DNA from: Heliomicrobium sp.
Lineage (GTDB): Bacteria > Acidobacteriota > Blastocatellia > RBC074
Length of the DNA: 64,000 bases
Assembly (NCBI GenBank): GCA_021155085.1
Contig: JAJNQA010000021.1
Location: forward strand, 2,875-66,874
Reading direction: 5' to 3'
Of this stretch, positions 4,169-45,169 are shown in pieces (the stretch's first letter is position 1; each line of letters opens with the position of its first letter). The notes under the pieces are model-generated. The model saw only the letters and a list, made by a program, of their open reading frames with translations, was not told the DNA's origin and searched no databases. Position numbers and translations under genes: made by a program.

Positions 4169-6724
4169 CTATCGCAGGATCGGCGTGTCGCCGGTCTGAC
4201 CGTGCTGCTGGCTCAGCGTCGTGCCGTCCGTGCTGCGGAGGGCGTACCAGAATCCGGTGGACGAACGCCAGACCGCCACATCGGATTTTCCATCGCCGTC
4301 ATAATCGCTCGGCACCGGGATGTCGAAATACGGCGAGTAGGAAGCGCCCCAGGTCGCATCCAGCAACGAACCGTTCGAGCTGCGGATGCCGTACCACTTG
4401 CTGACATTGCCGCGCCAGATGGTCACGTCGGCTTTGCCGTCGCCGTCATAATCCGCCGGAACCGGCGTGTCGTTGTGCGGATCGTTGGAAGTTCCCCACA
4501 ACACCTGTTGCGTGGCCCCATCCGAGCTGCGTTTGATGTACCAGGCACTGGTGTTACCGCGCCAGACGGCAATGTCCGTCCGTCCGTCGCCGTCGTAATC
4601 CGCCGGAACCGGCGTATCGAAATACGGCGCGTACGAAGCGCCCCAGCTCACTTCCTGCGTGGTGCCGTTGGAGCTGAGCTTGATGTACCAGTTGGTATTC
4701 GATCCGCGCCAGACGGCAATATCCGTCTTGCCGTCGCCGTCGTAATCGCCCGGCACGGGCGTATCGCCAGACACACCCAAAGCTTCCACACGGATCGAGT
4801 TGTCCGAACTGTTAATGATGTACCAGTTGCCATCCAGCGGACGCCAGACTGCAACATCGGTTTTGCCATCGCCGTCGTAATCGCCCGTTGCGGGAACGTC
4901 GTTGTATGGCGCATAAGAAGCGCCCCACAATACTGTTCTCAAGATTCCATCCGAACTGTTGATGATCAGCCATTTGCTTTCATTCCCTCGCCAGACGGCC
5001 AGGTCGGCTTTGCCGTCGCCGTCGAAATCGTTTTTGATCGCGCGGAACTGCGAAACCACCTGCAGGAAGTAGCTCTTTTGCGCGATGCGGAACGACGAAT
5101 CCAGCACGCGGAAGGTGATCGGGAAAAGTCCCGTTTGCGTGGGTGTTCCGCTGATCACACCGGTGCTGGAATTCAGCAGCAGGCCATCCGGCAGCACGCC
5201 GCCAGTAATGCTCCAAATCAGCGGCGCCGTGCCGTTGACCGCCACCAGTGTTGCCGAATACGGAATCCCGATTTTCCCGAACGGCAGCGATTGCGTGGCA
5301 ATCACCAGTTCAGTGGAATCAGCGGTCACCGTTGTGCGCACGATGCGCGTGTTGTTCGATTCGTTCGGATCGTTGATCGAAGAATAGGTTTCGCCGATGT
5401 TGACGATTTCCGATCCCGAAGGCAGGGTTTCATCAACCTTCGCGACGATGACCACGGAGCGCGTGACCAGCAATCCGCTGGTTCCCGCCCAGGTGCAGTC
5501 CACGGTTCCGTTTTCGCCGACATCGGGCACAAAGCAACTGCCACCGCTGCTCGGCGTGGCGGAAACGTAGGTCAGACTCGTGGGCAAACTGTCACGGATG
5601 ACGACGTTGAACGCCGAATCAAACCCCTTGTTTTTGGAAGACAGCGTGTAAGTAATGTTCGTGCCGCGCACGACCGACAGCGCCGGATTCCCGGACATCG
5701 TCAGTTCCAAATCCGCGCCATCCGCCGCCAATGCCCGACAGGCATCCGGCGCAGCGCCGACCGGGATTTCCAGACGGACGCTGGCAGAAACTGCTTTTGA
5801 ATCGAAATTACGCGCGCCGGAAAATGACTGGCTGCGGTTGTTGGCATTCAAAACCGCGCCGACAAAACCACCTTCCCCGGCGGCATCTGAAAGCTCAATT
5901 TCTCCTGTTTGCCCGGATGGAATTGCGGCTTTGCTGTCCGGAAGAAGTTTGGCCAGCGGCGATTGCAACTGGCACGATTCCACCTTGGATTGGAAAGAAA
6001 CTTTGCTGCCGCCGCTATTGGAAACCAGGCCGGAAACCGCTTCGATTGGCGCGCCCTGCTTGGCCAAATTTCCGCCGATGCGATTGACGACCAGAATCGA
6101 ATCATTGCCGTCCGCGGGACTGGCTACCTTATCCAGCGTCAGCACTGCGGGAAGCTGGGCATAACCGGTAGTGCTGCCGTCAAAAACCAGCGCAGCGGAT
6201 TCCGCCGCCTTTTTCGTTCCCTGCAAAGTGCCTTCAAAATTCGCTTTTACAGCGAATGCGTTCAACGCGCCGCCGTGTCCATCCGCTGTTCTGACATCTT
6301 CTGAACCGGTCAGGTAGTTGAAGCCCAACGGTTGCCCGGTCGTTTTATCCACCGCGACGGCCACGGCATATCCGCTGCCTTTCGGATCATAATCCGATGC
6401 GCGGACTTTTACCGTTGCCCCGGCGGTTACGCACAAATAGGTGTCACTGACGCCGCAGCCAGGCTGACGGACGAAGAACAAATGAACCGTGGCCGCTTCT
6501 TTCGGGTTGGTGTTGGTGAGAGTGAGGGTGGTGTCAACGTCTTTTTGGGAGCTATCCGAGTTGTAAAAATTGTAGATCAGCACCGAACCAATTTGTTGTG
6601 TGCCGGGAAGAACCGGCGAGGGATCGGTTTTCTGAACTCGCTGTGCCATTGAACCTGCCAACGGCCAGGCTAATAAGACTGCTGAAAACAAACACAATAA
6701 TCGAACCAGAGTTGAGGATTTCAT
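4169..6724 (-). CDS. Secreted multidomain protein: N-terminal domain of unknown family, a DUF11-like conserved repeat region, and about seven C-terminal FG-GAP/VCBS-type repeats.
   Basis: ATG at 6724 has AGGAAGGAAG just upstream and opens a signal peptide MKSSTLVRLLCLFSAVLLAWPLAGSMA. It ends in DYDGDGKTD(V/I)AVWR...WYI..SSDG repeats with a ~47-aa period. The N-domain (IYNFYNSD...VHLFFV...CGVSDTYLC) is homologous to the 33608..34738 protein. Confidence 0.75.
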   Translation of the reverse strand: MKSSTLVRLLCLFSAVLLAWPLAGSMAQRVQKTDPSPVLPGTQQIGSVLIYNFYNSDSSQKDVDTTLTLTNTNPKEAATVHLFFVRQPGCGVSDTYLCVTAGATVKVRASDYDPKGSGYAVAVAVDKTTGQPLGFNYLTGSEDVRTADGHGGALNAFAVKANFEGTLQGTKKAAESAALVFDGSTTGYAQLPAVLTLDKVASPADGNDSILVVNRIGGNLAKQGAPIEAVSGLVSNSGGSKVSFQSKVESCQLQSPLAKLLPDSKAAIPSGQTGEIELSDAAGEGGFVGAVLNANNRSQSFSGARNFDSKAVSASVRLEIPVGAAPDACRALAADGADLELTMSGNPALSVVRGTNITYTLSSKNKGFDSAFNVVIRDSLPTSLTYVSATPSSGGSCFVPDVGENGTVDCTWAGTSGLLVTRSVVIVAKVDETLPSGSEIVNIGETYSSINDPNESNNTRIVRTTVTADSTELVIATQSLPFGKIGIPYSATLVAVNGTAPLIWSITGGVLPDGLLLNSSTGVISGTPTQTGLFPITFRVLDSSFRIAQKSYFLQVVSQFRAIKNDFDGDGKADLAVWRGNESKWLIINSSDGILRTVLWGASYAPYNDVPATGDYDGDGKTDVAVWRPLDGNWYIINSSDNSIRVEALGVSGDTPVPGDYDGDGKTDIAVWRGSNTNWYIKLSSNGTTQEVSWGASYAPYFDTPVPADYDGDGRTDIAVWRGNTSAWYIKRSSDGATQQVLWGTSNDPHNDTPVPADYDGDGKADVTIWRGNVSKWYGIRSSNGSLLDATWGASYSPYFDIPVPSDYDGDGKSDVAVWRSSTGFWYALRSTDGTTLSQQHGQTGDTPILR

Positions 6725-6938
6725 ACCTAACTTCCTTCCTACAAAAGTTGTGCAGTTTGATTTAGAAAAAGCTCTCAACGCGTCAGCGCTGAAAATTCGC
6801 CTATTGTTGGGACTTGAAACGTATTGGGAGAAAGGGCTGGCCCTTAGTGGCGGGTCTTACAAGTCGGGTTGCACAAGAGAGTTGGAATTAAGATTAAAGT
6901 CGCGGACTTCCATTTTCCGTTTGCCATTATTGATTTGC

Positions 6939-20271: not shown

Positions 20272-20586
20272 GGTATCTCCCGTTGAAAGCCACAACCCTG
20301 GGACGCTTCGCCGTCAATGATGAAGCTCCGCAAGAACTGAGATTTTTGTTTTATTTGCGGGGATGCGGAAGTTGCAACGCGCTCAATCGAATTCCCCGTC
20401 CTCAAGCACGAAAAAATTGATTCGGATTTGCCCGGTAATTACCAACCTGCGCCGATGTGACTTCGCCCAGCAACCATTGCAAGGTGAATAATGCGCGACA
20501 AGGCAATATTCGTTGCCTGCACATACTCATCAATATGTTTGGGTTCGTCAATGTCCGGCGGCCCTTTGGACACAGCCAGCACTGAT

Positions 20587-28982: not shown

Positions 28983-30887
<1,905 letters not shown>

Positions 30888-30955
30888 ATAATCCGGTTGC
30901 TGGTGACCGCCTGCAGATCAAGCGTGTTTCTAAATCCGCAAGCGATCAGCAGCAA

Positions 30956-31732
30956 TCATTTCGTCGGCCGTTTGAAGTTCAACACACAATCCTGATCACG
31001 CAAACTGACCGTCAGCGTAAAATTTCCAATGCGCAGTCGGTCCCCATCACTTAACTCTGCCAAACTCACCCGCTCTTCATTCAAATGGGTACCATTAGCG
31101 CTATCGAGATCGCAGACAAAATATTTCCCGCCATGCCGCTCAATCGCCACATGATTCCTGGAGATATTATCCCCATCAAGCACAACTTGGTTGTCAGTTC
31201 GGCGGCCGATCGTTATCCGTTCTTCGCCAAACGGTTGTGTAACACCTTCTTCCAGCCCCTTGATGACAATATGCGGATTCAACTCAATCACAGGTGGCAA
31301 ATGATGAGGCATCGTCTCACGACTTTTTAGTCCCCCGGTTCCCACCGAGGATGTGAGATGAACAAACAGGATGTTATGGCCGATGCGAAGCTGATCGCCA
31401 TCTTGTAACTGCGCCTGCTGTACGCGCTGACCATTGATGAATGTCCCGTTGCGGCTGAAATCGTGCAGGAGATAAACGACCCCGAGGCGAACAATTTCGC
31501 AGTGTAATCTGGACACCGTTTCCCCATCCAACACGACATCACAATTTTCTCCACGGCCTAATGAGGTGTGATGTTTGGTCAAAAATAGGTCGGTCCGCCC
31601 AGCACACAAACCACCAACAAAGCTTAAACAAAGCTTGCTAGCAGGAGAACTGGTTGTTGATCGCCCTCTGTCCAGTCTGATGGAAAAAGCAGATTCAAAC
31701 TGACGGGTAAAATCGTGTTCCTGGCCGATCAC
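30956..31732 (-). CDS. Protein containing two FHA domains.
   Basis: Two FHA cores are present: GRGENCDVVL...VSRLHCEI...NGTFING and IGRRTDNQVVL...ISRNHVAI...NGTHLN. Lies immediately upstream of the kinase. Confidence 0.8.
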   Translation of the reverse strand: MIGQEHDFTRQFESAFSIRLDRGRSTTSSPASKLCLSFVGGLCAGRTDLFLTKHHTSLGRGENCDVVLDGETVSRLHCEIVRLGVVYLLHDFSRNGTFINGQRVQQAQLQDGDQLRIGHNILFVHLTSSVGTGGLKSRETMPHHLPPVIELNPHIVIKGLEEGVTQPFGEERITIGRRTDNQVVLDGDNISRNHVAIERHGGKYFVCDLDSANGTHLNEERVSLAELSDGDRLRIGNFTLTVSLRDQDCVLNFKRPTK

Positions 31733-32309
31733 GGTTGATTCAATCTCCCTGAATCATATCAATCTTCAGGATTAAGCAGCATTACCCAACTATATAAATG
31801 TTGGATTGCCGCAAGTGTCTTTTAAATTTTATTGCTAAATGCGTCGAGGCAACCACTATTTGAAACCACTCAAACAAGCGCCTAGCAAAAGAGAAGGTAG
31901 CTTAGCACGACGTTATTGCTTTGGCTAGCCAACTGACTTACGACCAGCGTGGAAGAATCAGGGTGGGCGATTGCTGTTGGCGGAATAAATCTGCTAGAAA
32001 AAAATTCTGATGCTAGCGGATTTTGTGGTTAGCGTTTGATGCCCAGAAATGGTTGGGATGGATGAGTCTGATGTTCTGAGCTCTTGGGTGATGAAGCCAA
32101 CAGAGCCGGTCCCCATCTCGACATTCCGTGGACAGCAGCATATCTATCTGTTCTTTGACAGTGAAGAGGACTACAAGGCGTGCGTGGCGGACCTGAGCAA
32201 ATACCCGGCGTTTCTGCTCAAACAGTACCAGCAAAACCCGGAACTATTCCCGCAAGCGTTTGCCGCCAGTTTCGATTGCTGCAGTTCAGGCAAACAGAAG
32301 GACCTTGTG

Positions 32310-32909
32310 CTACGGTGCATCCGGCACAAGCAGGGTGGAGAGGTCTTTACGCTGCGCCCATCCTTCGTCCTTCCCTACTTGATCTGATGCACCGAAGAAG
32401 TAGAAAAGGCTCTCTACTTGCGCCAGTGTGACGTGCCGTTTAAGGCGCTCGCCGATGTTCTCGGGCGCGACGCAATGTACTGGAATCGTGCCTGGATGGC
32501 CTTCGGCCGTCCGAATCTGGGCGACATGACTGTCAAAGTTGCTGGGCGAATGCCCGGACACCTGGTCGCCGATGAAAAGATCTCCTAGCTCGACAAAGCC
32601 GGACTCTGTGTCCCGGCGACTGTCGGCGATGGCTGCCTGCTGGGGATTCGCCTGGCGGGTGGAGCGGCCGAAATGGTCGAAAAACTCTGTGCCCAATGCG
32701 AAGCGTTCCTTCCGACCTATGATTGTCAGGGGCGGCGCGCACCTCGAACGCGGTGAATTTGGCTGCTCCATGTGAGGGACCGGAATCTGTACGCGATGCG
32801 CTACCGCAACGACACAAAGCACGCGCGATCGGCAGACTGGGCAACGGCTAGGCAGTGGAACTTTCATCCTTACGGGAAAAGATTGCGAAAACTTGACAGG
32901 ATCAAGCAA
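32310..32909 (-). pseudogene. Possible degenerate MBL-fold (GloB-like) remnant. Very tentative.
   Basis: LFIGDQVSGH...TIPVHCVAPE weakly parallels the GloB C-terminal LFxGDTLFSGG...TLVxxAHE. The N-terminal His motifs are absent (TEFFDHFG). It overlaps a 112-aa ORF on the + strand (32049..32387). Confidence 0.2.
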
Positions 32910-32959
32910 ATTCTCGCCTTTTGCAAAATAATAGCCAAGCGTGACAAGAAGTCAGGGCC

Positions 32960-32976
32960 TGTCAATAATATTGACA
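32960..32976. promoter_or_regulatory. Perfect palindrome TGTCAATA-A-TATTGACA, a candidate operator.
   Basis: Read directly. It sits in an AT-rich intergenic region containing several TTGACA-like hexamers. Confidence 0.4.
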
Positions 32977-33141
32977 GCAAGATTTACCTTTAGATTATGT
33001 CGCAATGCGTGAGTACAACGTTTTTTTCATAGTGACTGCTCTTGCAGCAGTTCCAGTATTCAAAAAGTGCGTCTTTAATACCGTTTATAGTTTATAAAAA
33101 ATATTTGCCTGGCTTTAGTCTGGCCTTCTGCCAGTAGCTCC

Positions 33142-33181: not shown

Positions 33182-33607
33182 AATGATAAGGCTTAGACTA
33201 ATGAAATGCTGGTTGACTCCCCCTATAAACGCGGCTACAATCTGAGCGCGTTGGCAGCGAACCTCAATCCTTCTCTCGTGAAGTGACCCTTTCGCAGTCA
33301 CGCCTCTGTCCCTGATAATTAGCTTTCAAAAGTGGTCAAGTCAATAATCCTGAAGCTCCTTTATGCATTTGCCGGGGACAGTGGTAGTGCGTGAACTTAT
33401 TATAAAGAGCATCCCCGTTGAAGTTCTCACTGGGTAACAGGAATAATTAACTTTCGAATTCACTTGAATTTCAATTCTGTTGGCTGGTCGTGCCTTAACC
33501 CCGAATGGCTGGATTCAGGCAGGAAATATAGGGTCATGAACGTTATTATACTTTCACCCTGATCAAGCTTGTTTCTGGGCTAATGCCGCTATTAAGAGGA
33601 GAACAGG

Positions 33608-34738
33608 ATGCGAGCCTCACGTCGCCGTCTATTGTTCGGGTTTTCATATACCATCGTTTCTGCTTTACTATTTTTTGTCCTAACGCTTGATGCCAATGCG
33701 CAGGGAATCGCTGGCTTGCCTGGTAGTGCGAGTGACGCGGCTTTGGGTCGGGGAGTTAGCGACAACAAGCTTGGCAGTGTGCTTTTCTTCAACTACTACG
33801 TCAGTGATGCATTGAGTTCACAGGTCAATACTCGTATCAATATTACGAATGCACATGCAACACAAGATATTGTTGTGCATGTATTTTTTGTTGACAGTAG
33901 TACATGCAATATTGCCGATGCATTCATCTGTCTGACTGGCAATCAAACGACTACATTCCTCGCCTCGGATCTTGATCCGAATGTGGCTGGTTATTTGGTC
34001 GTGATCGCAGTTGATTCTCAAGGTCGCCCGGTCAGTTTCAACTATCTGGCTGGAGACGAGTTGGTAGTAACGCCAACAGGGCATAGGTTTGGCTTAGCTG
34101 CCATGGCTGCGGCACGCCGCGATGGCAATTTCGCCTCGCCAGCTAATTCTGATGGCACCACCGCCACAATGTTTTTTAACGGCACACAATACGATTTTCT
34201 GCCATACGCAATGGTGCTCGATAGTTTTCCGAGCCAGGTATCTGGAGTAGGTGCGCCATTAGCTGACACAAGATTATATGCTTATTCTCCGCTTCCTGAT
34301 CTAGCCACTGGTGGTAGTGCATTTAGTGGCACCTTATTCTTTCTCGTTCACAACGATACTGAGAATACCTTTTCAGGACAGCTTCCATTAAATTGCTATC
34401 TGGCTTCTGACAAACAACGAATTACATCTGTTCGTACCTCACCCCCGATAAACACAATTATTCCCAGCGGACGCACTGGTTGGGCCAGTTTTTACGCCAA
34501 CGGAAGTCAGAGGGTAGTTTGCAATACATCTGGCGCGACTGTGACGCTCGCCAACGTGCCTCTGATGGGCGCAACAGCAACAAAAGTCGGATCGTTTACA
34601 GGCGGACAAAATCTGCGGATTGCGACAACGTTCAATGCGCAGGGGTTGTCGGGTTATTCAATCACAGTTCCGCTCATTCCGCCGTCTTGTGGCTCAAGCG
34701 TTGATTACCCAACTAACGGGAGCACATTGTGTCCTTAA
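33608..34738 (+). CDS. Secreted protein of unknown family. Its N-terminal domain is paralogous to the N-domain of the FG-GAP protein at 4169..6724.
   Basis: RBS AAGAGGAG. Signal/TM LLFGFSYTIVSALLFFVLTLDANA. The block GSVLFFNYYVSD...VHVFFVDSSTCNIADAFICLTGNQTT...GYLVVIAVDSQGRPVSFNYLAGDE aligns with GSVLIYNFYNSD...VHLFFVRQPGCGVSDTYLCVTAGATV...GYAVAVAVDKTTGQPLGFNYLTGSE. GC is lower than the surroundings. Confidence 0.6.
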   Translation: MRASRRRLLFGFSYTIVSALLFFVLTLDANAQGIAGLPGSASDAALGRGVSDNKLGSVLFFNYYVSDALSSQVNTRINITNAHATQDIVVHVFFVDSSTCNIADAFICLTGNQTTTFLASDLDPNVAGYLVVIAVDSQGRPVSFNYLAGDELVVTPTGHRFGLAAMAAARRDGNFASPANSDGTTATMFFNGTQYDFLPYAMVLDSFPSQVSGVGAPLADTRLYAYSPLPDLATGGSAFSGTLFFLVHNDTENTFSGQLPLNCYLASDKQRITSVRTSPPINTIIPSGRTGWASFYANGSQRVVCNTSGATVTLANVPLMGATATKVGSFTGGQNLRIATTFNAQGLSGYSITVPLIPPSCGSSVDYPTNGSTLCP

Positions 34739-34836: not shown

Positions 34837-34876
34837 GGCACAATCAAATTGTTGTGATTGTGCCACTACCTTTTTG
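34837..34876 (+). terminator. Rho-independent terminator.
   Basis: Stem GGCACAATCA / TGATTGTGCC with 8-nt loop, followed by ACTACCTTTTTGCC. Confidence 0.6.
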
Positions 34877-35266: not shown

Positions 35267-36490
35267 ATGGCAGAGTTTACTTGCAGACTGGGAACCCCCG
35301 CAGGCGAGATTGTGACACGTACCGTTGAAGGTCTGTCCGAGCAAGAACTACGTCTGCGCCTCTCCCAGGAAGGTTATCGAATTTTCTCAGTCGAAACTGC
35401 TGGCGCGATTGCCGGCATGCGAATTCGGAGCGGCAAACAACGTTCTGTTAAGATCAAACTTGACGACTTTCTTCTCTTCAATCAGCAGTTGGCGGCGCTC
35501 TTCCATGCTGGATTGCCGGTCCTACAATCCATTCAGATGTTGCGTCAGCGCTCACCGAATGCGAAACTGCGATCTATTCTGGCCGATGTAGAAGCGCGAA
35601 TTAAATCCGGCAGCGCACTTTCAGAGGCTTTCGCGGCGCAAGGCGAAACCTTTCCGAAGATTTATACCGCCTCGATCCTTGCGGGTGAACGTTCCGGCAA
35701 TCTCGACGAAGTGTTGCGCCGATATGTTGAATTCACAAAATCAATTGCGCAACTCCGGCGAAAGATCCGCGGTGCTCTTACCTATCCGGTTATGCTGCTT
35801 TGTGCAGCGGTAGTGTTGATCATTGTGTTGACGACTTTCGTCATTCCGCAGTTCTCGTCACTTTATGAAAATATGGGCGCTGATTTGCCAAAGATTACAG
35901 TTTTTGTCGTCGGTTTTTCATCGGCAGTACGCGAAAACATCTTCTGGCTTGCACCAGCATTAGTCGGTTTTATCGCCGCAATTATTTCTTGGCGTCGGAC
36001 TGAGAATGGACGACGCACGATGGATCGCTGGATACTAAAGGTTCCGATCATTGGCGAATTGATCAGGCAGATGACGACAGCGCAATTTTCCCGCAGCATG
36101 GCAACGTTGTTGGCAGGTGGCATTACCGTAGTCGAGTCATTCCAAATTGCTCTTGCTTCCGTAGCGAACAGGGAGTTGCTGCGTTCGACCGAACCGGCGC
36201 TCCCCAAAGTCCGTGAGGGCAAGCCATTCACTGAAAGTCTGGCGGAAGCTGGATGGGTTCCTGAATTGGCAACTGATATGATTGGTGTAGGCGAACGCTC
36301 TGGGTCGCTGCGAGAGATGCTGGATGAAGTATCTGGCTTTTACGACGCGGAGACTGAAGTCAAACTTGGCCAGTTGACCAGTTTGATTGAGCCAGCCATC
36401 CTGTTTTTAATGGCTGGAGTTGTAATCACGATTCTTCTGGCAATTTACCTGCCGCTATTGCAAATGGTCAGCAAGGCAGGAGCAGCATAA
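35267..36490 (+). CDS. gspF: Type II secretion system F / type IV pilus PilC-family inner-membrane platform protein.
   Basis: GspF/PilC-like over 407 aa with two T2SSF repeats and three TM segments (e.g. LTYPVMLLCAAVVLIIVLTTFVIPQF). Confidence 0.85.
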   Translation: MAEFTCRLGTPAGEIVTRTVEGLSEQELRLRLSQEGYRIFSVETAGAIAGMRIRSGKQRSVKIKLDDFLLFNQQLAALFHAGLPVLQSIQMLRQRSPNAKLRSILADVEARIKSGSALSEAFAAQGETFPKIYTASILAGERSGNLDEVLRRYVEFTKSIAQLRRKIRGALTYPVMLLCAAVVLIIVLTTFVIPQFSSLYENMGADLPKITVFVVGFSSAVRENIFWLAPALVGFIAAIISWRRTENGRRTMDRWILKVPIIGELIRQMTTAQFSRSMATLLAGGITVVESFQIALASVANRELLRSTEPALPKVREGKPFTESLAEAGWVPELATDMIGVGERSGSLREMLDEVSGFYDAETEVKLGQLTSLIEPAILFLMAGVVITILLAIYLPLLQMVSKAGAA

Positions 36491-36518: not shown

Positions 36519-38162
36519 ATGGCAACTGCAGCAGACCAAATCAATTCACTCTCTTCAACACCGGGGCAGGCGTCGGAACGCGAAATAGCAGAACGTGTTG
36601 CCCGGCGCTACAGGCTTAACTTTATCCCTCTCGAAAGTCATCCAGTTGATTACAATCTTGTGCAGTCACTGCCAGTGGACCTGATGCTGCGGAACAAATT
36701 CGTTCCGCTTCGCCGCGAAAACGGTCATATGGTCATCGCCATGGCGGATCCGTCGGATCTGATGCTGCTTGACGAGTTGAAAGCGCAGCTTCGGATTCCG
36801 CTTAAAGTCGAAGTCGCCACTGCAAGCGCGATCGAAGCCGTGTTGCGCAAAGGCGATGCTTCCCAGCGCGTGCTGCAGGAAGCAACTGAAGGCTTCCGCG
36901 CAGCGTTGGTCAAGGAAACAGAAAATGGTGAAGAGGTTCTTGATCTTGACCGCTTGTCTGGTGACAGCGAGATGTCGCCAATCATCAAGCTGGTGGATAC
37001 GATTGTCTTCACCGCTCTGGAAAAACGCGCCTCCGATATTCATATGGAGACTCGTGATTCAGACATGGTTGTGCGCTATCGAATCGATGGCGCACTTTAT
37101 GAAGCTGGCGACCCGATTGACATACGCCATCACCAAACGATCATCTCTCGTATCAAGGTCATGTCGGAACTAGACATCGCTGAGCGGCGCGTCCCGCAGG
37201 ACGGGCGTTTCCGCATGCGGATCAGAGGGCGCAATGTGGATTTTCGCGTTTCGATCATCCCAACTGCGCACGGCGAAGATGCGGTCATTCGTATTCTCGA
37301 CAAGGAACAGATTAATGAATCGTTCAAAGACTTGCGCCTGGAGGTTGTCGGCTTTGATCCGGTCCTGCTCGCGAAATTCCGCCGCTTTATTCTGGAGCCC
37401 TATGGAATGGTGCTGGTAACTGGTCCAACCGGTTCAGGTAAAACGACGACCCTTTATGCAGCGCTCAACGAAATTCGCAACGACGAGGACAAGATCATCA
37501 CAATTGAAGACCCGGTCGAATACCAACTTCGTGGTGTTGCACAGATCGCAGTCAATGAGAAAAAAGGACTGACTTTCGCGCGCGGCTTGCGCTCAATTCT
37601 GCGCCACGATCCAGACAAGATCATGGTCGGCGAAATCCGCGACAATGAGACCGCGCAAATTGCCATCAACTCGGCGCTCACGGGTCACTTGGTTTTCACG
37701 ACCGTCCACGCCAACAATGTGATTGACGTGATCGGGCGATTCATCAATATGGGTGTCGAACCCTACAATTTCGTCTCCGCGCTGAACTGCGTGCTGGCGC
37801 AGCGTCTGGTTCGCGTTATCTGCCCGCGTTGTCGTGAAAAATACCAGCCGACGGATGCCGATTTGATTGAAGCGGGTCTGACGCCATCAAAATTCAAAGA
37901 CCGAATTTATTACAAGAGCGTCGGCTGCGAAGCGTGCAACCATACGGGTTATCGCGGCCGGACCGCAATCCATGAACTACTGGATATGTCCGACACCATC
38001 CGGGAACTGATTATTGCGCGAAAACCAGGCTCTGAAGTCCGCCGTACCGCGATTCAGGAAGGCTTGGGCAGTTTGCGCGCATCTGCTTTACGGCTGGTAT
38101 TTGAAGGTCAAACAACGTTACACGAAATCAACCGGGTGACCTTCGTCGAAGAGATGCAGTAG
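36519..38162 (+). CDS. gspE: Type II secretion/type IV pilus assembly ATPase (GspE/PilB family).
   Basis: Walker A GPTGSGKTTT is present. A tetracysteine motif CPRC...CEAC is present. The N1 domain has FVPL...MADP. Confidence 0.9.
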   Translation: MATAADQINSLSSTPGQASEREIAERVARRYRLNFIPLESHPVDYNLVQSLPVDLMLRNKFVPLRRENGHMVIAMADPSDLMLLDELKAQLRIPLKVEVATASAIEAVLRKGDASQRVLQEATEGFRAALVKETENGEEVLDLDRLSGDSEMSPIIKLVDTIVFTALEKRASDIHMETRDSDMVVRYRIDGALYEAGDPIDIRHHQTIISRIKVMSELDIAERRVPQDGRFRMRIRGRNVDFRVSIIPTAHGEDAVIRILDKEQINESFKDLRLEVVGFDPVLLAKFRRFILEPYGMVLVTGPTGSGKTTTLYAALNEIRNDEDKIITIEDPVEYQLRGVAQIAVNEKKGLTFARGLRSILRHDPDKIMVGEIRDNETAQIAINSALTGHLVFTTVHANNVIDVIGRFINMGVEPYNFVSALNCVLAQRLVRVICPRCREKYQPTDADLIEAGLTPSKFKDRIYYKSVGCEACNHTGYRGRTAIHELLDMSDTIRELIIARKPGSEVRRTAIQEGLGSLRASALRLVFEGQTTLHEINRVTFVEEMQ

Positions 38163-38434
38163 ATGAATTTGGAACGCTTCCGGCCCCTGAGCGTTGAAAG
38201 CGCTAGTTGCGTTCGACCTGAATCCGTACCGCAACAGTGAATGTCAGCCCGTTTCACCGGAATCCGCCCCATTTTTTTTGAAGGTTTGCAGGCACCCGAG
38301 TCGTTCCACCATTTTTTGTATTTTGGCGTTTCGCCAGGAGTATTTTGTAAATGACAAGGACAAGGTTCGCCTAACCCTGTCCTGCTTTGAGATAGAGCTT
38401 GTCGAAGTTCAACACCAATAAAGAGAAGGTCACC

Positions 38435-41400
38435 ATGAACACAAACATCACGATTCGCAGATTTCTCGCCTTGTTCCTGACACTGTGTCTAATCTTGCCG
38501 GGAACTGCTCTGGCCGGCGGCGGTAAGGGCAAAAAGAATTTCAACGAGGGGAAAAAATACGAAAACGCACAGCAATGGGACATGGCCGCACAAGCTTACG
38601 CGTTGGCAGTTTCGGCTGAGCCGGACAATCCGGAATATCGGCTTCATTACATGCGCGCGTTGCAGCAGGCGTCGTTGATGTACGTCAAACGTGGCGATGC
38701 GCTCGCCGAACAAAATGATTATCCGGGCGCTTACACCGCCTACCGTTCGGCGTTTAATTATGATCAGGGCAACGAAGTTGCGCGAATCAAGATGGAGCGG
38801 ATGCTCGACCAGCAAAAGGCATTGGCCAACGGGCTGGAGCCAGTCGCTTATACGAATTCCGGCAATGTCAAACCGACCAGCGATCTGCAAATTTCGACCA
38901 AGCCGCGCAATCGTGACCTTCTGCAAAACGTTGAATTCAAAGACGCAAGCTTCAAATCGGTCGTCAAAAATCTCGGCAAACAATTGGGGCTGAACGTACT
39001 GTTCGATGATCAGGTCAAAGACGACAAAGTCACCGTGGATATGAATGATGTGACTTTGGCCAAGGCGATGGACAATATCCTGTTCATGAAGAAATACACT
39101 TTCGAGCAGATGGATCGCCGCACCATCATCGTGTATCAGGACAATCCAACCAACAAGCCGCGCTTCGAAAAACTGATGGTCAAGGCCTTCTATTTGGGCA
39201 ACATCAATGCCACACAGGCGCGCGGCGTCATCACATTGGCGCTCGGCGCGGCCCGGCAAGTTCAGCCACTGGATCAGGCTGCCGGCGGCCCAGGCGGCGG
39301 TGCGGGTGGCAGCGGTGGCGGCAATATCATTCTGGTCAAAGCCACACCGCAGGAATTGCAGGTCGTCCAGCAAATCCTGGAGATGGTTGACAAGAACAAG
39401 AATGAAGTTGTGCTCGACGTGGATATTTATGAAGTCTCGCACGACAGCATGCTGAAAATTGGCAATCAGATCGCGACTTCCCCGGTGCAAGTGGATGCGC
39501 TTGAGTACGTGGATAAAGAAACCGGCAAGCCATACTATCGGCAAACGCCGACGTCCTCGCTGGGAAATTTTGGTGGATTGGGACAGGCAAACGCTTTGGC
39601 GGGAACCGTCAATCTTCTTGGTGGCGCAGGCAGCTTTCTGGGAATGGGCGCGTTGATTGGCTTGCCGCCGACGACGTTGTCGCTGCTGCAATCAAAGGGC
39701 AATTCGAAGCTGTTGAATAAGACTCAAATTCACGTCCTCGATGGCCAATCAAACACCACCAAGGTCGGCAAAAGCGTGCCGGTACGTCTTGGCACCCAGT
39801 ATGGTTTTAACGGTGGTTTTGGTGGTGGCTCCCAACTTGGGGGAGGTCTTAATGGCGCAGTCAACGGCGCAGTGAATGGAGCTCTTGGCAACCAGTTCGG
39901 TGGATTTGGTGGATTGGGCAGCGGTATTGACTCGATTCAATATCGTGACGTCGGCCTCGTCATCGAAGCGACGCCTACCATCACTAACGAAGGTTACGTC
40001 GAAGTAAAGATGAAATTCGAGACTTCGGACGTCGCGGCTTCAGGCAGCACGAGCGAATTAACGCCGACCTTTACACAACGATCCATGCAAACCGTCGCAC
40101 GCATCAAAGATGGTGTGACATCCGTGGTTGCGGGAGTTAACCAACAGAACAAAGGCGATTCACGCGCGACCATTCCAATCATCGGGATGGTCCCAATTCT
40201 CGGACGCCTGTTCACGACTCCCAATCAGACATCCGCCCAGACCGATTTGATTATTACTGTCACGCCGCACATCGTCCGGTCTGCGGGGATTACACAAAAG
40301 GATTACCTGGCGGTCTACACCGGCGGCAACAGTACTGCCGGTGGCAGCTTGCCGCCGAGCGTGGAAGACGTCGTATACCGCGCGCAGCAGGAAGAAGAAC
40401 AGGAACGCCGGTTGATCGCGATGAATTCGCCGACGCCGCAAAGCATCCCATTGACTGCTGACAGCCAACCGGCAACCACGCAATTGGCAGGCAATCAACA
40501 ATCACAATTGGAGCAGCCAAGACAGCCGGCTGTGCAACCGGTCAACAACACGAATACCGGCGCGCCTGCGGTTCGTACTTTCGGTAACAATAATCTGGCG
40601 CCGATTTCCACTTCGAGCACATTATCGTCAGGGGCTCCGGTCGTTCAGCAAACGCCCCAGCAATTTGAGCAGAGCAATCCCACCGAGATTCCGCCAACAG
40701 AAATTGCGCTGGCAGGCAACAAAGAAGGCCCGATGAAAGATGGGGAGATGAGAGAAGGCGAGGTGATCAAGCCCGAAAATCCGGTCCCGATCGCAACGGT
40801 ATCCTTTGGACAGGATAGTGAAGAACGCCAGAAAAAGATGACTCTGATCCGGCAGCAATATGCAGATGAGCAGAAAAGGCTGGAACAGGAAGCCAAAGCC
40901 AACGCAAAATCAAAACGGGTGGAGTCAGCCCCCGCGCCGATGCCTGAAGGGATGACCGGACCAAAAACCAAAGTTCCACTGGCTGTTCCTGCCATGGGGG
41001 CTGCCCGAGGCAATGTGGGCTTCACGCTCTCGGCGCCAAATCGTCAGCAGGTTGGCAAGACTTTCAGCGTCTCGGTCGAAACAAACGGCCAGGGTCAGAT
41101 ATTTGGTGCAAGTATTGCCCTTCGTTTCGACGAATCCAAGCTGAAAATTAAATCCGTCCGAGGCGGAGAACTCTTCGGCGAACACCCGGAGTTGAGCCAC
41201 AGCATTGAAAAAGGTATCTTGAAGGCGTCCATCAAGAACCAGCAGAAATCGGGGGTTTCGGCCAGCGGGCGGGTGTTTGTGATCGAATTTTCCGCGATTT
41301 CCGAAGGCTCAACTGAAATCGGATTCAACAATGCTGACACGAAGGTCAATATATCCAGTACAACAGTCGTTGGAGCCAACGGACGGGCGGCGCAAGTCGT

Positions 41401-41443
41401 CATCAGCCGTGACGCTGTCGCAAGTTCAACCAATGAAAGATAA
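38435..41443 (+). CDS. gspD: Secretin (GspD/PilQ family) with an N-terminal TPR-like region and a C-terminal Gln/Pro-rich linker plus cohesin-like beta-sandwich domain.
   Basis: ATG at 38435 follows GAGAAGG and opens a signal peptide. The secretin core has VLDGQSNTTKVGKSVPV, IEATPTITNEGYVEVKMKFETSDV and IPIIGMVPILGRLFTTPNQTSAQTDLIITVTPHIV. After ~300 aa of low complexity, the C-terminus VGFTLSAPNRQQVGKTFSVSVETNGQGQIFGASIALRFDESKLKIKSVRGGELFG...GRVFVIEFSAISEGSTEIGF looks cohesin-like. Confidence 0.85.
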   Translation: MNTNITIRRFLALFLTLCLILPGTALAGGGKGKKNFNEGKKYENAQQWDMAAQAYALAVSAEPDNPEYRLHYMRALQQASLMYVKRGDALAEQNDYPGAYTAYRSAFNYDQGNEVARIKMERMLDQQKALANGLEPVAYTNSGNVKPTSDLQISTKPRNRDLLQNVEFKDASFKSVVKNLGKQLGLNVLFDDQVKDDKVTVDMNDVTLAKAMDNILFMKKYTFEQMDRRTIIVYQDNPTNKPRFEKLMVKAFYLGNINATQARGVITLALGAARQVQPLDQAAGGPGGGAGGSGGGNIILVKATPQELQVVQQILEMVDKNKNEVVLDVDIYEVSHDSMLKIGNQIATSPVQVDALEYVDKETGKPYYRQTPTSSLGNFGGLGQANALAGTVNLLGGAGSFLGMGALIGLPPTTLSLLQSKGNSKLLNKTQIHVLDGQSNTTKVGKSVPVRLGTQYGFNGGFGGGSQLGGGLNGAVNGAVNGALGNQFGGFGGLGSGIDSIQYRDVGLVIEATPTITNEGYVEVKMKFETSDVAASGSTSELTPTFTQRSMQTVARIKDGVTSVVAGVNQQNKGDSRATIPIIGMVPILGRLFTTPNQTSAQTDLIITVTPHIVRSAGITQKDYLAVYTGGNSTAGGSLPPSVEDVVYRAQQEEEQERRLIAMNSPTPQSIPLTADSQPATTQLAGNQQSQLEQPRQPAVQPVNNTNTGAPAVRTFGNNNLAPISTSSTLSSGAPVVQQTPQQFEQSNPTEIPPTEIALAGNKEGPMKDGEMREGEVIKPENPVPIATVSFGQDSEERQKKMTLIRQQYADEQKRLEQEAKANAKSKRVESAPAPMPEGMTGPKTKVPLAVPAMGAARGNVGFTLSAPNRQQVGKTFSVSVETNGQGQIFGASIALRFDESKLKIKSVRGGELFGEHPELSHSIEKGILKASIKNQQKSGVSASGRVFVIEFSAISEGSTEIGFNNADTKVNISSTTVVGANGRAAQVVISRDAVASSTNER

Positions 41444-41984
41444 GAAAAATCATCGGTTCATGCTCAACAATCGGTGGCTGGCAAATGCTGGCCACCGATT
41501 GTTGAATGGCAGCAAACCAGATCGCGAATCCGGTTTTACGCTGCTTGAATTGATCATTACATTGACGGTCATCGCCATTCTGGCGGCGGGCACGGTTCCG
41601 GTCGTTCACAATATGATTCGGCGCCAGAAAGAACTGGAACTACGCCGCAACCTTCGTGAGATTCGTCAGGCAATTGATGCCTACCAGGCCAGTTGCGTCA
41701 AGGGAGAGGCCGGATTCGACAAGGAAACCGATGACTGTTATCCGCCGAGTTTGGAGGCCATGGTCAAAGGCTTCAACCCGCCTGGCAAGGTCAACGAAAC
41801 CAAGCGTTTTCTGCGCCGCGTTCCGCTTGATCCCTTCACCCAAAACACGCAATGGGGCATGCGTTCGATGGAAGACGATCCATATTCGACAGGTGGCGGA
41901 CCGGGTGGCAAAAACGGCATTTTTGACGTTTACACCACTGCTCAGGGAAAAGCGCTTGATGGTTCGGACTACAGCAAATGGTAA
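41433..41984 (+). CDS. GspG-like pseudopilin/pilin 1 (prepilin N-terminal domain) with an unusually long leader.
   Basis: Contains ...RESGFTLLELIITLTVIAILAAG (G|FTLLE with Glu at +5) and the GspG-like EIRQAIDAY. About 36 aa precede the predicted cleavage site if the ATG at 41433 is used. Overlaps the secretin stop by 11 nt. Confidence 0.6.
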   Translation: MKDKKNHRFMLNNRWLANAGHRLLNGSKPDRESGFTLLELIITLTVIAILAAGTVPVVHNMIRRQKELELRRNLREIRQAIDAYQASCVKGEAGFDKETDDCYPPSLEAMVKGFNPPGKVNETKRFLRRVPLDPFTQNTQWGMRSMEDDPYSTGGGPGGKNGIFDVYTTAQGKALDGSDYSKW

Positions 41985-42529
41985 AGAAAGCCGGAAAAAT
42001 AGCAGTAAAGAGTGATGTGCAATCGAGATTGACAGCCAGATCACGGTTTGTCGAATCAGGGTTCACTTTGCTTGAACTAATCATCACCTTGACGATTCTT
42101 TCCATCTTGTCATTCGGAACCATTCCCATCGCCCGTAATGTCATCAGACACGAAAAGGAGTTGGAGTTAAAACGCACATTACGGGAAATGCGCAAGGCGA
42201 TTGATATGTATCACCGGGACTGCGCAGACCGAGGACTAATCGGCACTCTGGACCGCAAAATCAATGATGGCTGCTATCCGTTGACGTTGGAAGTCCTGGT
42301 TGAAGGCATTCCCAAGGCAGCGCCAGGAGGAATCAGCGCTTCCGGCGAAATGCTTCGCTATCTGAGACGGATTCCAAAAGATCCCATCACCGGGCGGGAC
42401 GACTGGAAATTTCGCTCGGTGCAGGACGAACCGGATTCAGAATCCTGGGGCGGAGAGAACGTCTACAATGTTTACAGTAACTCCCAGCAGATGGCGCTCG
42501 ACGGAAAGACCTACTACAAAGATTGGTAA
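41978..42529 (+). CDS. GspG-like pseudopilin/pilin 2, with a long leader.
   Basis: Contains ...FVESGFTLLELIITLTILSIL and LREMRKAIDMY. About 26 aa precede the predicted cleavage site. Confidence 0.6.
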   Translation: MVKKAGKIAVKSDVQSRLTARSRFVESGFTLLELIITLTILSILSFGTIPIARNVIRHEKELELKRTLREMRKAIDMYHRDCADRGLIGTLDRKINDGCYPLTLEVLVEGIPKAAPGGISASGEMLRYLRRIPKDPITGRDDWKFRSVQDEPDSESWGGENVYNVYSNSQQMALDGKTYYKDW

Positions 42530-42531
42530 TT

Positions 42532-42975
42532 ATGAAGTCAAAGTCTCAAAAATCTTTTTTCAGTTCTGACGCTTCGCACGAAGGGTTTCGAGCGCGGGTT
42601 CAACGCGGCTTCACATTCATGGAGTTGCTAATTGTGATGGTTATCATCGCAATTTTGGCTGCGGTGGCGATTCCGAAATATCTGGCCCATCTTCGCCGCG
42701 CAAAAGAGGTGGTGTTACGGCAGGACTTGTGGGCGATGCGCCGCGCGATTGACTTTTACTCAACAGATAAGGAGCAGCCTCCGTCTGGTCTTGAAGAGTT
42801 GGTCAGTGCAGGTTATTTGCGCGAGCTTCCGAAAGACCCAATGTGCCCTGACGACTGTCAATGGGTGACTGTCCCCGCCCAGACAGATAGTCTCAGCGCT
42901 GCTGGCGGCATCGGCGATGTGAAAAGCAGCGCACCAGGCAATGACTCAAACGGAGTTCCCTATTCAGAGTATTAA
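42532..42975 (+). CDS. GspG-like major pseudopilin/pilin 3.
   Basis: Contains ...RARVQRGFTFMELLIVMVIIAILAAVAIPKY and LRQDLWAMRRAIDFY. About 25 aa precede the predicted cleavage site. Confidence 0.65.
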   Translation: MKSKSQKSFFSSDASHEGFRARVQRGFTFMELLIVMVIIAILAAVAIPKYLAHLRRAKEVVLRQDLWAMRRAIDFYSTDKEQPPSGLEELVSAGYLRELPKDPMCPDDCQWVTVPAQTDSLSAAGGIGDVKSSAPGNDSNGVPYSEY

Positions 42976-43017
42976 GGCTCGTCATTGTTTTCCCTGGTTA
43001 TCAAGGGATCGTTATTT

Positions 43018-43971
43018 ATGAAACAACTTCCTATCTTATCCGGCCTCTGGAATTATCTGACTGCGCCCGATCTTCCCCGCACCGCACTGGCTATCAGCGA
43101 AACTCACCTGTCCATTGTCTCGCTACGACGCAGCAAAGGCGAGTTTGAGCCGCGCAACCTGGGCGTGCTGCGCTTGCCGGAAGGTTTAGTGCGCTCAAGC
43201 TTCACAGACACAAATATCTCAGATGAATCATCCCTGATGGAGCATCTGACCAGAACGGCAGCTCAGGCAGGACTCAGTCGTCCACGAAATTTAAGTGTTG
43301 CCCTGCCTTCAGGAAGTGCTCGCAGTCAGGTCATCTCGCTCGACACCATGCCCAATTCGCGCAGTGAAGTGGCAGAGTTGATCGAATGGAAGATCGAGCG
43401 CAGTTTCGGCCAGAAATTCAGCGACTTGCGGGCTAGTTACACCCGGCTGAGCGATTTTAACGGCCGGCCGCATTGGCTGGTGACCGCTGTTCATTCGCGA
43501 GTGCTGGGACAATACGAACGCATTTTCAAGGAATTAAGCTGGTCAGTCGGAATGATCGCGCCCCAGAATCTGGGAGAAGCGCAGTGGTTAATGCGGCAGA
43601 AGCTTGAAGACGATCAGGTCATCGTTAGTTTGAACGAACGCGGTTTCGATACAGTCATTGTACGTGGCACGGAACCGATTCTGGTGCGCGAAGTGGAATG
43701 CCCTCCGGAAGAACGCGAGGATGAATTTTACCGTCTTCTTATCTTCTACCGGGATCGTTTGTTGCCCGAAAATGCGCCGATCACACTCAATCGCGTGCTG
43801 ACGTTGGGAACACCCGCTGACCAGCGGCGTTTCCGCGAAGTGTTGGTGTCCGCACTGGAAAATCATGCGGTTGCACTGGACCCGCAGCAAATCGGTCTGA
43901 AAATCGAGCCCAACGCGCCATTCAACCATTTTGCCGCCTCAAGCGGATTGGCAACGATGGCGTGGGGTTAA
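43018..43971 (+). CDS. Putative PilM/GspL-like cytoplasmic assembly component (tentative).
   Basis: 317-aa soluble protein encoded directly after the pseudopilins. It has no signal peptide and only weak actin-like/PilM-like features, so the call rests mainly on position. Confidence 0.35.
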   Translation: MKQLPILSGLWNYLTAPDLPRTALAISETHLSIVSLRRSKGEFEPRNLGVLRLPEGLVRSSFTDTNISDESSLMEHLTRTAAQAGLSRPRNLSVALPSGSARSQVISLDTMPNSRSEVAELIEWKIERSFGQKFSDLRASYTRLSDFNGRPHWLVTAVHSRVLGQYERIFKELSWSVGMIAPQNLGEAQWLMRQKLEDDQVIVSLNERGFDTVIVRGTEPILVREVECPPEEREDEFYRLLIFYRDRLLPENAPITLNRVLTLGTPADQRRFREVLVSALENHAVALDPQQIGLKIEPNAPFNHFAASSGLATMAWG

Positions 43972-44205
43972 TCGGACAAAACTCGACGATTTTCCATCTC
44001 CTCACGTACCCAAGCTGTTACCCACTATTCGGTTTTCTGGGCAGAGATACGGTATACTCCACTGCCCTTCGTAACAGGCTTGGGCTGTATGTTGTCCCGG
44101 ATCGCAAAGCTTCACCACAAATTCATCATATCCAAAGACTGAAAGGAAGATATTTTCGGATGGCTGTCAGGCTCAGAGCTTGACGGTACAATCGGAAGGA
44201 TGATT

Positions 44206-44952
44206 ATGGATTCACGCACGAAACATTATTCTCTGACAAAATTTTCAATCACAGCGATTTCACTCTTCGCAATATTACTCCTTGCTGCATGCGGCAAGGA
44301 GTCGGTGGTTTCGGACAATTCCGGTCAGAACGCCGCCAGCAATTCGTCACCGGCTTCGGCCAATCCTGGCGCATCACCGCAAGCAGTTTCAACTCCGGGC
44401 GCATCGCCAGCGACTGCCCAAACAACTCCTGTGGGTCCGGTGGGACAGACCACGCCAAATTCTCCATTTGAAGCCCAACCTGGCGAAAAGAAACAAATGA
44501 TGGGAAATATTCCTGTCACGGTCGGGCCGGCGAAGCCAGCCTTGACGCCTGCGCCTGATCCATTTCCGCCGCGCCCAGCACCCGCCGTGACGACTCAAAA
44601 TGGCAAGGTTGTGCAGCAATGGCAAGCTCCAGCGGAAGCTGCCGGTCTTACCAGCCCGGTTAAAAATCGCCCGGATGCCGCAGCTCTTGGACGAGAATTC
44701 TACATGCAAAAATGTGTTGACTGTCACGGCAAGGAAGGCAAAGGCAATGGATACATGTCAGCTCAAACCAAACGTGACGGGAAACCACTCCCTCCAACCA
44801 ATCTGGCAAGTCAGATGGTGCAGGCCAATACGGACGGCGAACTGTTCTGGAAAATCACCAATGGCAAATCGCCTATGCCTGCGCACCGTGTCCGATTTGA
44901 AGACGAGCAACGCTGGTATATTGTCGCCTACCTGCGCACATTCAAACCGTAA
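44206..44952 (+). CDS. Lipoprotein with a C-terminal class I cytochrome c domain.
   Basis: Lipobox LLAAC, a Pro/Ala-rich linker, the heme motif CVDCH and a distal Met (GKSPMPAH). GGAAGG sits 6 nt upstream of the ATG at 44206. Confidence 0.65.
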   Translation: MDSRTKHYSLTKFSITAISLFAILLLAACGKESVVSDNSGQNAASNSSPASANPGASPQAVSTPGASPATAQTTPVGPVGQTTPNSPFEAQPGEKKQMMGNIPVTVGPAKPALTPAPDPFPPRPAPAVTTQNGKVVQQWQAPAEAAGLTSPVKNRPDAAALGREFYMQKCVDCHGKEGKGNGYMSAQTKRDGKPLPPTNLASQMVQANTDGELFWKITNGKSPMPAHRVRFEDEQRWYIVAYLRTFKP

Positions 44953-45169
44953 CGATTTCCAGATAGAGTTAAAATTGTAAGAAAGGCAAAGGAAACTTAT
45001 GGTTAGAGCAGAAACCCGACAGGTCTTTTTCAATTCCACGGAATCTAAATCGGGTATCAGCGCGTAGATTACGTCAAAGACCGCTGACGAAAAAGCTGAT
45101 TCATGACCTTGAACGCACTCTATTCAGCACGTTTTTTTGAGGGAAAATTATTGGAGCTTTAGCTTTTGT

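Follow-up and report, generated by a model that had tools for sequence, protein, structure and literature searches.

A secreted protein adjoining a reduced type II secretion-like gene cluster in Blastocatellia shares a module with a large family of putative surface proteins

The 64,000-nucleotide stretch of DNA analysed here (the window) comes from a genome of the class Blastocatellia (Acidobacteriota) and contains, at 33608..34738 on the + strand, an open reading frame (ORF), gene X, which encodes a secreted protein of 376 amino acids (aa) and is directly followed by the genes of a reduced type II secretion/type IV pilus-like machine. We found that protein X carries one copy of a module of about 310 residues and no other domain, that this module recurs in a large family of mostly bigger proteins, and that the orthologues of X adjoin the secretion genes in every locus with downstream DNA. 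Our preferred reading, which is tentative, is that the adjacent machine exports X as its partner, X being expressed separately and probably strongly, and that the module is a portable extracellular unit for binding or anchoring. Blastocatellia have been reported to be abundant in soils and wastewater systems and are rarely cultured, and, to our knowledge, how they build their surfaces is essentially unknown; a literature search on the secretion systems of Blastocatellia found nothing relevant.

Protein X and a distant FG-GAP protein are homologous

A sequence-only reading of the window had proposed that the first 130 or so residues of X after its signal peptide align with the N-terminus of an 869-aa FG-GAP protein encoded 28 kb away (4169..6778, − strand). 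BLASTP aligned the two proteins at E=1e-26, with 34% identity over 255 columns (residues 53-291 of X against 61-292 of the FG-GAP protein); given this E-value, the similarity is real and well past chance. The homology is thus borne out, and the motifs listed in that reading proved to be the most conserved part of the family described below, but the shared region is considerably longer than proposed. By the family hidden Markov model (HMM), it spans about 310 residues, that is, the whole of mature X and residues ~22-342 of the FG-GAP protein. The copy in X (aa ~53-361) lies at 33764..34690 (+ strand), as delimited by the HMM span and the invariant alignment columns, and the N-terminal copy in the FG-GAP protein (aa ~22-342) lies at 5753..6715 (− strand), as delimited by BLASTP against X and the HMM match. 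In the 64-kb window, the family HMM found no copies besides these two. The FG-GAP protein begins with a signal peptide, and beyond the module it consists of DUF11, He_PIG, and FG-GAP repeats (Pfam).

The N-terminus of X starts with the family leader motif M-R-x-S-R/H-R/K. Its leader is of the Sec type and ends in ANA|Q; the predicted signal peptide, read by eye from the sequence, is MRASRRRLLFGFSYTIVSALLFFVLTLDANA|Q (33608..33700, + strand), and residues 8-26 are helical in the AlphaFold model. Neither the sequence nor Pfam revealed a lipobox, a membrane anchor, or a pilin-type N-terminus in X. The best-conserved stretches of the family are GSVLFYNYY, NTRINITN, VHLFFVD, C..AD.F.CLT, SD.DP..GY, and FN.L.GDE. 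The module of X contains four conserved cysteines (C100, C108, C263, and C361), which suggest disulfide bonds, and six invariant polar residues (S57, S66, N81, H91, D123, and Y195). It is followed by a tail specific to the X orthologues, GSSVDYPTNGSTLCP (34691..34735, + strand), which carries one additional Cys in the alignment of the family.

The sequence-only reading did not recognise the domain, and databases gave the same answer. Pfam returned nothing above cut-off for X, the sole match being Phage_ASH (E=0.1, 13.5 bits against a cut-off of 26); NCBIfam returned no family; and a profile search of 177,635 PDB sequences gave no significant match, the best one, ClpP (E=0.11), being spurious. 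We rejected X as a type IV pilin or type II pseudopilin: it has no N_methyl match and a Sec-type leader, whereas three downstream genes do match N_methyl.

Orthologues of X are always followed by secretion genes

More than 120 full-length homologues of X were found (59-99% identity), all of them unnamed or hypothetical and without Pfam domains; where the source gives an organism, it is Blastocatellia or Acidobacteria. We scanned one genome per GTDB species, which yielded 326 relatives, and examined the best 80 loci. Two clearly separate groups emerged, 35 loci with orthologues (57-88% identity) and 45 with paralogues (36-44%), and among the best 80 there was one X-orthologue locus per genome assembly. 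The 3.3-Mb contig of the MAG (metagenome-assembled genome) STL-ACI6 contributed paralogues only. Each locus was searched with the window's own proteins. Of the orthologue loci, 37 have downstream DNA, and in every one of these gspF lies directly 3' of X; gspE and then the secretin gene follow wherever the fetched DNA extends far enough. In contrast, none of 47 paralogue loci had gspF, gspE, or a secretin gene within 6 kb. The adjacency to secretion genes, which the sequence-only reading had noted for X, is therefore a property of the X orthologues and not of the family as a whole.

Conserved gene order extends beyond the secretion genes. On the other side of X, a gene encoding a double-FHA protein is syntenic in 30 loci and one encoding a kinase fusion protein in 28, and at the far end of the cluster a cytochrome c gene is syntenic in four loci (L001-L004), followed in L002 by a gene for an RskA-type anti-sigma factor. 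In two loci (L002 and L037), the FHA and kinase genes have been replaced while X still adjoins the secretion genes; the breakpoint there lies upstream of X, not between X and gspF. The mean identity to the window copy is 73% for X, 84% for GspF, and 88% for GspE, and it is lower for the secretin (62%), the pilins (54-59%), and a PilM-like protein (55%); thus, X is more constrained than the exposed parts of the machine.

Several MAGs with X orthologues at 67-87% identity are labelled "uncultured Heliomicrobium sp." or "Heliobacteriaceae bacterium" (L008, L011, L012, L016, L020, L021, L036, and others). Their gene order is that of the Blastocatellia MAGs, and the labels are probably wrong.

X has its own promoter, leader, and terminator

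A near-consensus promoter, TTGACT-N17-TACAAT (33213..33241, + strand; 10/12 matches in a promoter scan), lies about 395 nucleotides (nt) ahead of the ATG of X, and its hexamers and spacing are kept in an alignment of 25 orthologous upstream regions. It is part of a conserved upstream and leader region (33198..33607, + strand), delimited by blastn and alignment, with two blocks at 33198-33320 and 33405-33520; by blastn, these ~400 nt are 70-82% identical to many orthologous loci. Among the leader blocks is CATCCCCGTTGA..TTCTCACTGGGCAACAGGG, and ahead of the ATG stands a Shine-Dalgarno sequence, GAGAGGAGAA, that does not vary between loci. At the other end, a terminator scan found an intrinsic terminator, made up of a 10-bp stem and a T-run after it, 99 nt past the stop codon of X (34837..34874, + strand), as the sequence-only reading had pointed out. 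An equivalent hairpin occurs 75-110 nt past the stop codon in most orthologous loci, and its stems vary yet remain complementary. The spacer between X and gspF contains separate conserved blocks ahead of gspF. With a promoter, leader, and terminator of its own and separate blocks for gspF, X is a separate transcription unit. These signals are consistent with high expression, and it is from them that we infer it.

A riboswitch or other structured RNA in the leader and in the X-gspF spacer was considered and rejected. Rfam gave no match at E<=5 for either region, and RNAalifold returned -0.65 to -2.25 kcal/mol with almost no pairs; we treat both regions as conserved sequence blocks rather than structured RNA.

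The sequence-only reading placed X in an island of lower GC content. X has a GC content of 0.485 and a third-position GC content (GC3) of 0.43, compared with a window GC of 0.55 and GC3 values of 0.51-0.61 for neighbouring genes, but the "island" amounts to two AT-rich intergenic regions (GC 0.42) plus X with its lower GC3. As a foreign island, acquired horizontally, it was rejected, for X is syntenic in every orthologous locus and its GC3 tracks that of each host genome (0.44-0.85 across loci). In 36 of 37 loci (L001-L041), X has a lower GC3 than the gspF, gspE, and secretin genes beside it (mean -0.065), a trait of codon usage that is specific to the gene and possibly linked to expression.

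Ahead of the promoter of X, between it and the FHA gene, lies an extra segment of ~0.95 kb (32049-32993, GC 0.55) with fragmentary, overlapping ORFs. Orthologous loci align to 31733-31935 and resume at ~33198, which suggests an insertion or a gene in decay that only this genome has. Its ORFs, considered as a possible mobile-element remnant, had no Pfam match.

The synteny and the transcription signals bear on the main rival of our reading, that X is an ordinary Sec-exported protein, periplasmic or otherwise released, which stands in conserved gene order without any functional tie to the cluster. We consider this unlikely, though it is the strongest competitor. The promoter and terminator that X has to itself and the separate conserved blocks ahead of gspF speak for it, the synteny does reach the unrelated FHA, kinase, and cytochrome c genes, and the 47 paralogue loci have neither secretion genes nearby nor a conserved partner gene. 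However, the breakpoint in L002 and L037 fell upstream of X and spared the X/gspF junction, there are zero exceptions in 37 loci at identities down to 57%, and X is under stronger constraint than the secretin and the pilins.

The module belongs to a large family and is usually C-terminal

A profile search run exhaustively over 1.84 billion representative proteins yielded 1692 clusters (50% identity) at E<=1e-3, of which 736 reached E<=1e-30. All family members with a name or location come from Blastocatellia/Acidobacteriota assemblies, and no precomputed Pfam domain on the homologues overlaps the module. The family is therefore large, lineage-restricted, and unannotated in Pfam, NCBIfam, and PDB.

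Architectures were counted in 143 representatives among the hits listed. The module stands at the exact C-terminus of larger proteins (~500-5800 aa) in 126 of them, occurs in two or three copies per protein, some N-terminal, in 12, and stands alone in 5. The term "N-domain" used in the sequence-only reading does not fit this distribution, in which the N-terminal arrangement is exceptional. A separate set of 120 relatives of the N-terminal region of the FG-GAP protein comprised 89 standalone modules and 30 C-terminal ones, and an N-terminal module with a C-terminal extension was essentially absent from it; the FG-GAP protein of the window is therefore atypical. Standalone paralogues are frequently arranged in tandem arrays of two or three genes.

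Scans of the passengers found He_PIG, HYR, Big_3_5, DUF11, SdrD_B, dockerin, and Kelch domains, as well as SBBP propeller, DUF7948, DUF7933, P_proprotein, and FG-GAP_2 domains; Calx-beta appeared as a precomputed Pfam accession on matches of the family search, and one passenger combines LTD with an endonuclease/exonuclease/phosphatase (EEP) domain. Since the module may be C-terminal, N-terminal, repeated, or standalone and accompanies adhesin-like, propeller, and enzyme passengers, its distribution is that expected of a binding or anchoring unit, and a portable extracellular unit fits better than a dedicated N-terminal domain. A protein encoded in the window at 48297-51287 (+ strand) has DUF7948, an SBBP propeller, and TIG, the same passenger layout as the protein at 3553-6882 of locus L063, which ends in the module; like passengers therefore occur with and without it.

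Two hallmarks mark the family at its ends. In 194 of 251 members whose module reaches the end of the protein, Cys is the final residue in the form PPxC-COOH (PPSC, PPNC, PPTC, etc.); paralogues stop at this point, whereas the X orthologues extend ~15 residues past it with a further Cys. At the N-terminus, the family leader M-R-T-S-R/H-K-L-T-H, continuing to ...ALA|ADPG, is present on standalone members and on some large proteins; the corresponding stretch of the window is 33608-33640. A loose regular expression for the leader matched 51 ORFs in ~1 Mb of loci, and all 51 bear the module. Some large proteins have the leader more than 300 residues away from the module, and about half of the large module proteins lack the motif. 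The paralogue loci contained no conserved partner gene (a chaperone, usher, sortase-like enzyme, or outer-membrane protein was sought), and clustering their neighbours brought out recurrent "families" only of shadow ORFs that run antisense to the module genes.

These hallmarks recall the type IX C-terminal domain of Bacteroidota (Por_Secre_tail), which is likewise a lineage-restricted beta-sandwich at the extreme C-terminus of varied surface proteins with Ig repeats, propellers, or enzyme domains. The module differs in length (~310 against ~80-100 residues), in its N-terminal, repeated, and standalone occurrence, and in phylum and machine; X, from Acidobacteriota and with a module of ~310 residues, had no match to Por_Secre_tail/TIGR04183 in Pfam or NCBIfam. 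A second likeness is to envelope anchors shared by paralogous surface proteins of Gram-positive bacteria, for example the SLH domains or, in the Cwp proteins of Clostridioides difficile, the triple CWB2 module. There too, a module of ~300 residues stands at either terminus next to varied domains, and one prominent member is encoded beside a dedicated secretion factor. No relationship of sequence or fold to these anchors was found, however, and for the module of X the binding of an envelope polymer is conjectural.

By analogy with the type IX domain, the module could be a secretion or sorting domain recognised by the machine or by X, with X as a cargo-less prototype or an adaptor. We regard this as quite improbable. 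It would account for the exact C-terminal position in 126 of 143 classified representatives, the PPxC-COOH ends, the variety of passengers with an enzyme among them, the retention of the family leader on proteins with more than 300 passenger residues ahead of the C-terminal module, and the finding of exactly one strictly machine-linked member per genome. Yet 310 residues far exceed known sorting tags, the module is also N-terminal, internal, or present in two or three copies per protein, standalone copies in tandem arrays are common, and the leader motif is missing from about half of the large proteins; moreover, type II secretion systems are not known to use a transferable secretion domain. 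A broader version would be a display system specific to Blastocatellia, in which the usually C-terminal ~310-residue PPxC-COOH module, the leader M-R-T-S-R/H-K-L-T-H, and a dedicated machine with a cohesin-bearing secretin work together, X is the cargo-less prototype, and the machine or X recognises the module and exports or anchors more than 1000 surface proteins. This is speculative and again improbable; if true, a type II-type system would for the first time be seen to have a secretion or anchoring domain that can be recognised and transferred.

The module is predicted to contain two beta-sandwiches

AlphaFold2, run on an alignment of 85 sequences, gave a confident all-beta model of X with ~19 short strands (predicted local distance difference test score, pLDDT, 91.6; predicted template modelling score, pTM, 0.88). 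In this model, the module comprises an N-terminal beta-sandwich (aa ~55-170) and a C-terminal half with a sandwich like that of TM1070, a relative of the sensory rhodopsin transducer from Anabaena (ASRT). Foldseek found no whole-protein match to X in PDB (best E ~7e-4, template modelling score, TM, 0.16-0.18). The sub-domain match to TM1070 (1nc7) has a Foldseek probability of 1.00 and a target-normalised TM of 0.61-0.65, and it is a fold-level match only, with a root-mean-square deviation of 4.3-5.0 A, E of 0.003-0.03, and 8-11% identity. It falls in the C-terminal half, of which a second model (residues 170-376) had a pLDDT of 88.7, and spans less than half of the module, with ~150 alignment columns for a target of 117 residues. 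The N-terminal sandwich had no structural match. The sequence-only reading had allowed that the domain might map to a known fold, and the model brought out a resemblance of this kind for the C-terminal half only.

TM1070 is the Thermotoga orthologue of ASRT and the founding structure of the ASRAH domains, eight-stranded sandwiches made of two four-strand repeats that are predicted sugar binders, the extracellular ones included (PMC2739507). By sequence, they are marked by a conserved Trp where strand 1 begins and a conserved Asn where strand 2 ends (PMC2739507). Onto TM1070, as a member of the ASRT/ASRAH (DUF1362) superfamily, the C-terminal half of X can be superposed with the probability and TM given above, but the low identity, the coverage of less than half of the module, and the lack of a Pfam match at E<=1 do not place X in this family by sequence. 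A possible extracellular role in glycan binding is compatible with the half that resembles ASRT, with the invariant polar residues, and with the conserved cysteines.

The top PDB match, 4h3w (BDI_1231; E=7e-4), raised the possibility that X is a Bacteroidota type V (FimA/Mfa) pilin. We rejected it, as the TM is poor (0.16-0.18) and X has no lipobox Cys; a literature search on 4h3w (BDI_1231) as a type V pilin found nothing.

The adjacent machine and the place of X beside it

The cluster downstream of X begins with genes for a GspF/PilC-type platform protein (35267..36490, + strand; Pfam T2SSF, E=9e-52) and a GspE/PilB-type ATPase (36519..38162, + strand; Pfam T2SSE, E=5e-130, plus MshEN). The next gene (38399..41443, + strand) encodes a secretin of 1014 aa (Pfam Secretin, E=2e-29) with TPR, STN, and Secretin_N domains at its N-terminus and an extension of ~390 residues past the secretin domain, which terminates in a cohesin (E=4e-9 at aa 876-978). 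Orthologous secretins have the cohesin too, mostly as weak or faint matches. Three prepilin-type (pseudo)pilin genes follow (41331..42975, + strand; 41331-41984, 41978-42529, and 42523-42975), all with Pfam N_methyl; their best NCBIfam matches are GspG-like and under the curated cut-offs, and the true start of the first is probably later than 41331. The last gene, for a PilM/GspL-like protein (42985..43971, + strand), is a weak match (PilM_2, E=0.007; TIGR01175, E=0.058) and is syntenic in L001-L004. No recognisable genes for GspC, GspK, GspL, GspM, or a pilotin were found in the cluster by Pfam and NCBIfam.

A distant family member, P0257, has a dockerin immediately ahead of its module, and this dockerin and the cohesin of the secretin are a possible docking pair. 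Pfam found neither Dockerin_1 nor Cohesin in X itself that could pair with the secretin cohesin.

The make-up of the cluster also leaves room for X as an accessory to the structure of the machine and not an export product of it; X could, for example, partner the secretin in the periplasm or in association with the outer membrane. X heads the conserved block, its conservation exceeds that of the secretin, the pilins, and the PilM-like protein, the cluster has no recognisable GspC, GspL/M, or pilotin genes, and the unusual C-terminal cohesin of the secretin could dock a partner. Nevertheless, we think this role very unlikely for X, which has no lipobox, membrane anchor, or pilin-type N-terminus and forms a transcription unit of its own with a strong promoter, while the module is also found on large, adhesin-like, and evidently extracellular proteins.

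The reading that we prefer makes X an exported partner instead. X would be transcribed from its own promoter through the long conserved leader to its own terminator, and with signals of this kind it is probably made in large amounts. The product would consist of a Sec signal peptide and one all-beta module of ~310 residues, and it would fold in the periplasm. The machine, a minimal type II secretion/type IV pilus-like assembly of GspF, GspE, the cohesin secretin, three pseudopilins, and the PilM-like protein, would then carry it to the cell surface or into the medium. Elsewhere, the module would serve on Ig-repeat adhesins, beta-propellers, and at least one nuclease, or repeated or standalone in tandem arrays, where its likeliest role is binding or anchoring, to a cell-surface glycan or to itself. 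We favour the exported partner as the likeliest role of X because of the strict adjacency, its survival of upstream rearrangement, the strong conservation, and the separate signals. The sequence-only reading had named X a candidate cargo or substrate-recognition module, which, for the X orthologues, is a reasonable hypothesis.

Several points weigh against this reading. X and the machine genes are in separate transcription units, and since gene order is also kept for the FHA gene (30 loci), the kinase gene (28 loci), and the cytochrome c gene, adjacency by itself is weak evidence for a functional tie. Substrates of type II secretion are not known to share a sequence signature. The conservation of X exceeds that usual for exoproteins, and this could equally indicate a role within the machine. 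The likeness to ASRT is at the level of the fold (8-11% identity, no Pfam match) and leaves the N-terminal sandwich unmatched. Finally, export, abundance, and binding of X are all predictions made from sequence.

Least probable of all is that X and the other standalone members polymerise to form a lattice or fibre on the cell surface, which the large proteins join through their own modules, much as proteins associated with a surface layer (S-layer) have an anchoring module in common with the S-layer protein: the tandem arrays of two or three standalone paralogues, the signals of X consistent with high expression, the module at either end of varied proteins, and the precedent of the S-layer protein VapA with its dedicated sps type II genes (PMC4483657) speak for it, but self-association is conjectural, mature X (~37 kDa) is small for an S-layer protein, and Foldseek gave no structural match to a known pilin or S-layer protein (best whole-protein TM 0.16-0.18).

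The exported partner that we prefer would have precedents in two known systems. In Aeromonas salmonicida, vapA lies beside the sps type II genes (spsE-L) (PMC4483657), and in Pseudomonas fluorescens, psp lies beside the Hxc system and has its own promoter, and its Hxc-dependent secretion has been shown (PMC2225411). The neighbouring machine is held to export the product of the adjacent gene in both (PMC4483657, PMC2225411). The arrangement is like that of X, in that a gene for a Sec-dependent exoprotein with its own promoter adjoins gspE, gspF, secretin, and pseudopilin genes. X is unlike VapA and the DING proteins in sequence and has a large paralogous family, and its export is only inferred. 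Its machine is reduced by comparison, with three pilins, no recognisable GspC, K, L, or M, and a secretin with TPR/STN and cohesin.

Secreted beta-sandwich modules, and exoproteins encoded beside their own type II-type machine, are thus known already; what is new here is the combination of a usually C-terminal, 310-residue PPxC-COOH module, a matching leader, and a single machine-locked member per genome. Our analysis adds a large unannotated family of extracellular domains (1692 representative clusters at 50% identity) that marks varied surface proteins, a confident structural model of the module, and one member that is locked clade-wide to a reduced type II secretion/type IV pilus-like operon. 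If the link is functional, X and its neighbours would be the first concrete pairing of a substrate with its machine known from this phylum and could give a sequence-recognisable handle on type II substrate recognition, a long-standing open problem. If it is not, the module is one more lineage-specific domain of unknown function that merits a family entry.

Other genes of the window

Beyond the PilM-like gene lie the genes for cytochrome c and the RskA-type anti-sigma factor (44200-45934, + strand), and upstream of X, on the opposite strand, those for the double-FHA protein and a Ser/Thr kinase-FGE-sulfatase fusion (28983-31732, − strand). The FHA, kinase, cytochrome c, and anti-sigma genes may encode regulators or may merely reflect conserved gene order. 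The remaining window contains housekeeping genes and other large Ig-repeat proteins without the module. One of the large proteins, of 2628 aa (12409-20295, − strand), has 10 Big_3_5 and 6 He_PIG repeats and no module, and its C-terminal FG-GAP region resembles that of the 869-aa FG-GAP protein. Antisense to the gene of the latter is a 604-aa, Arg-rich ORF (3986-5800, + strand) that resembles a shadow ORF.

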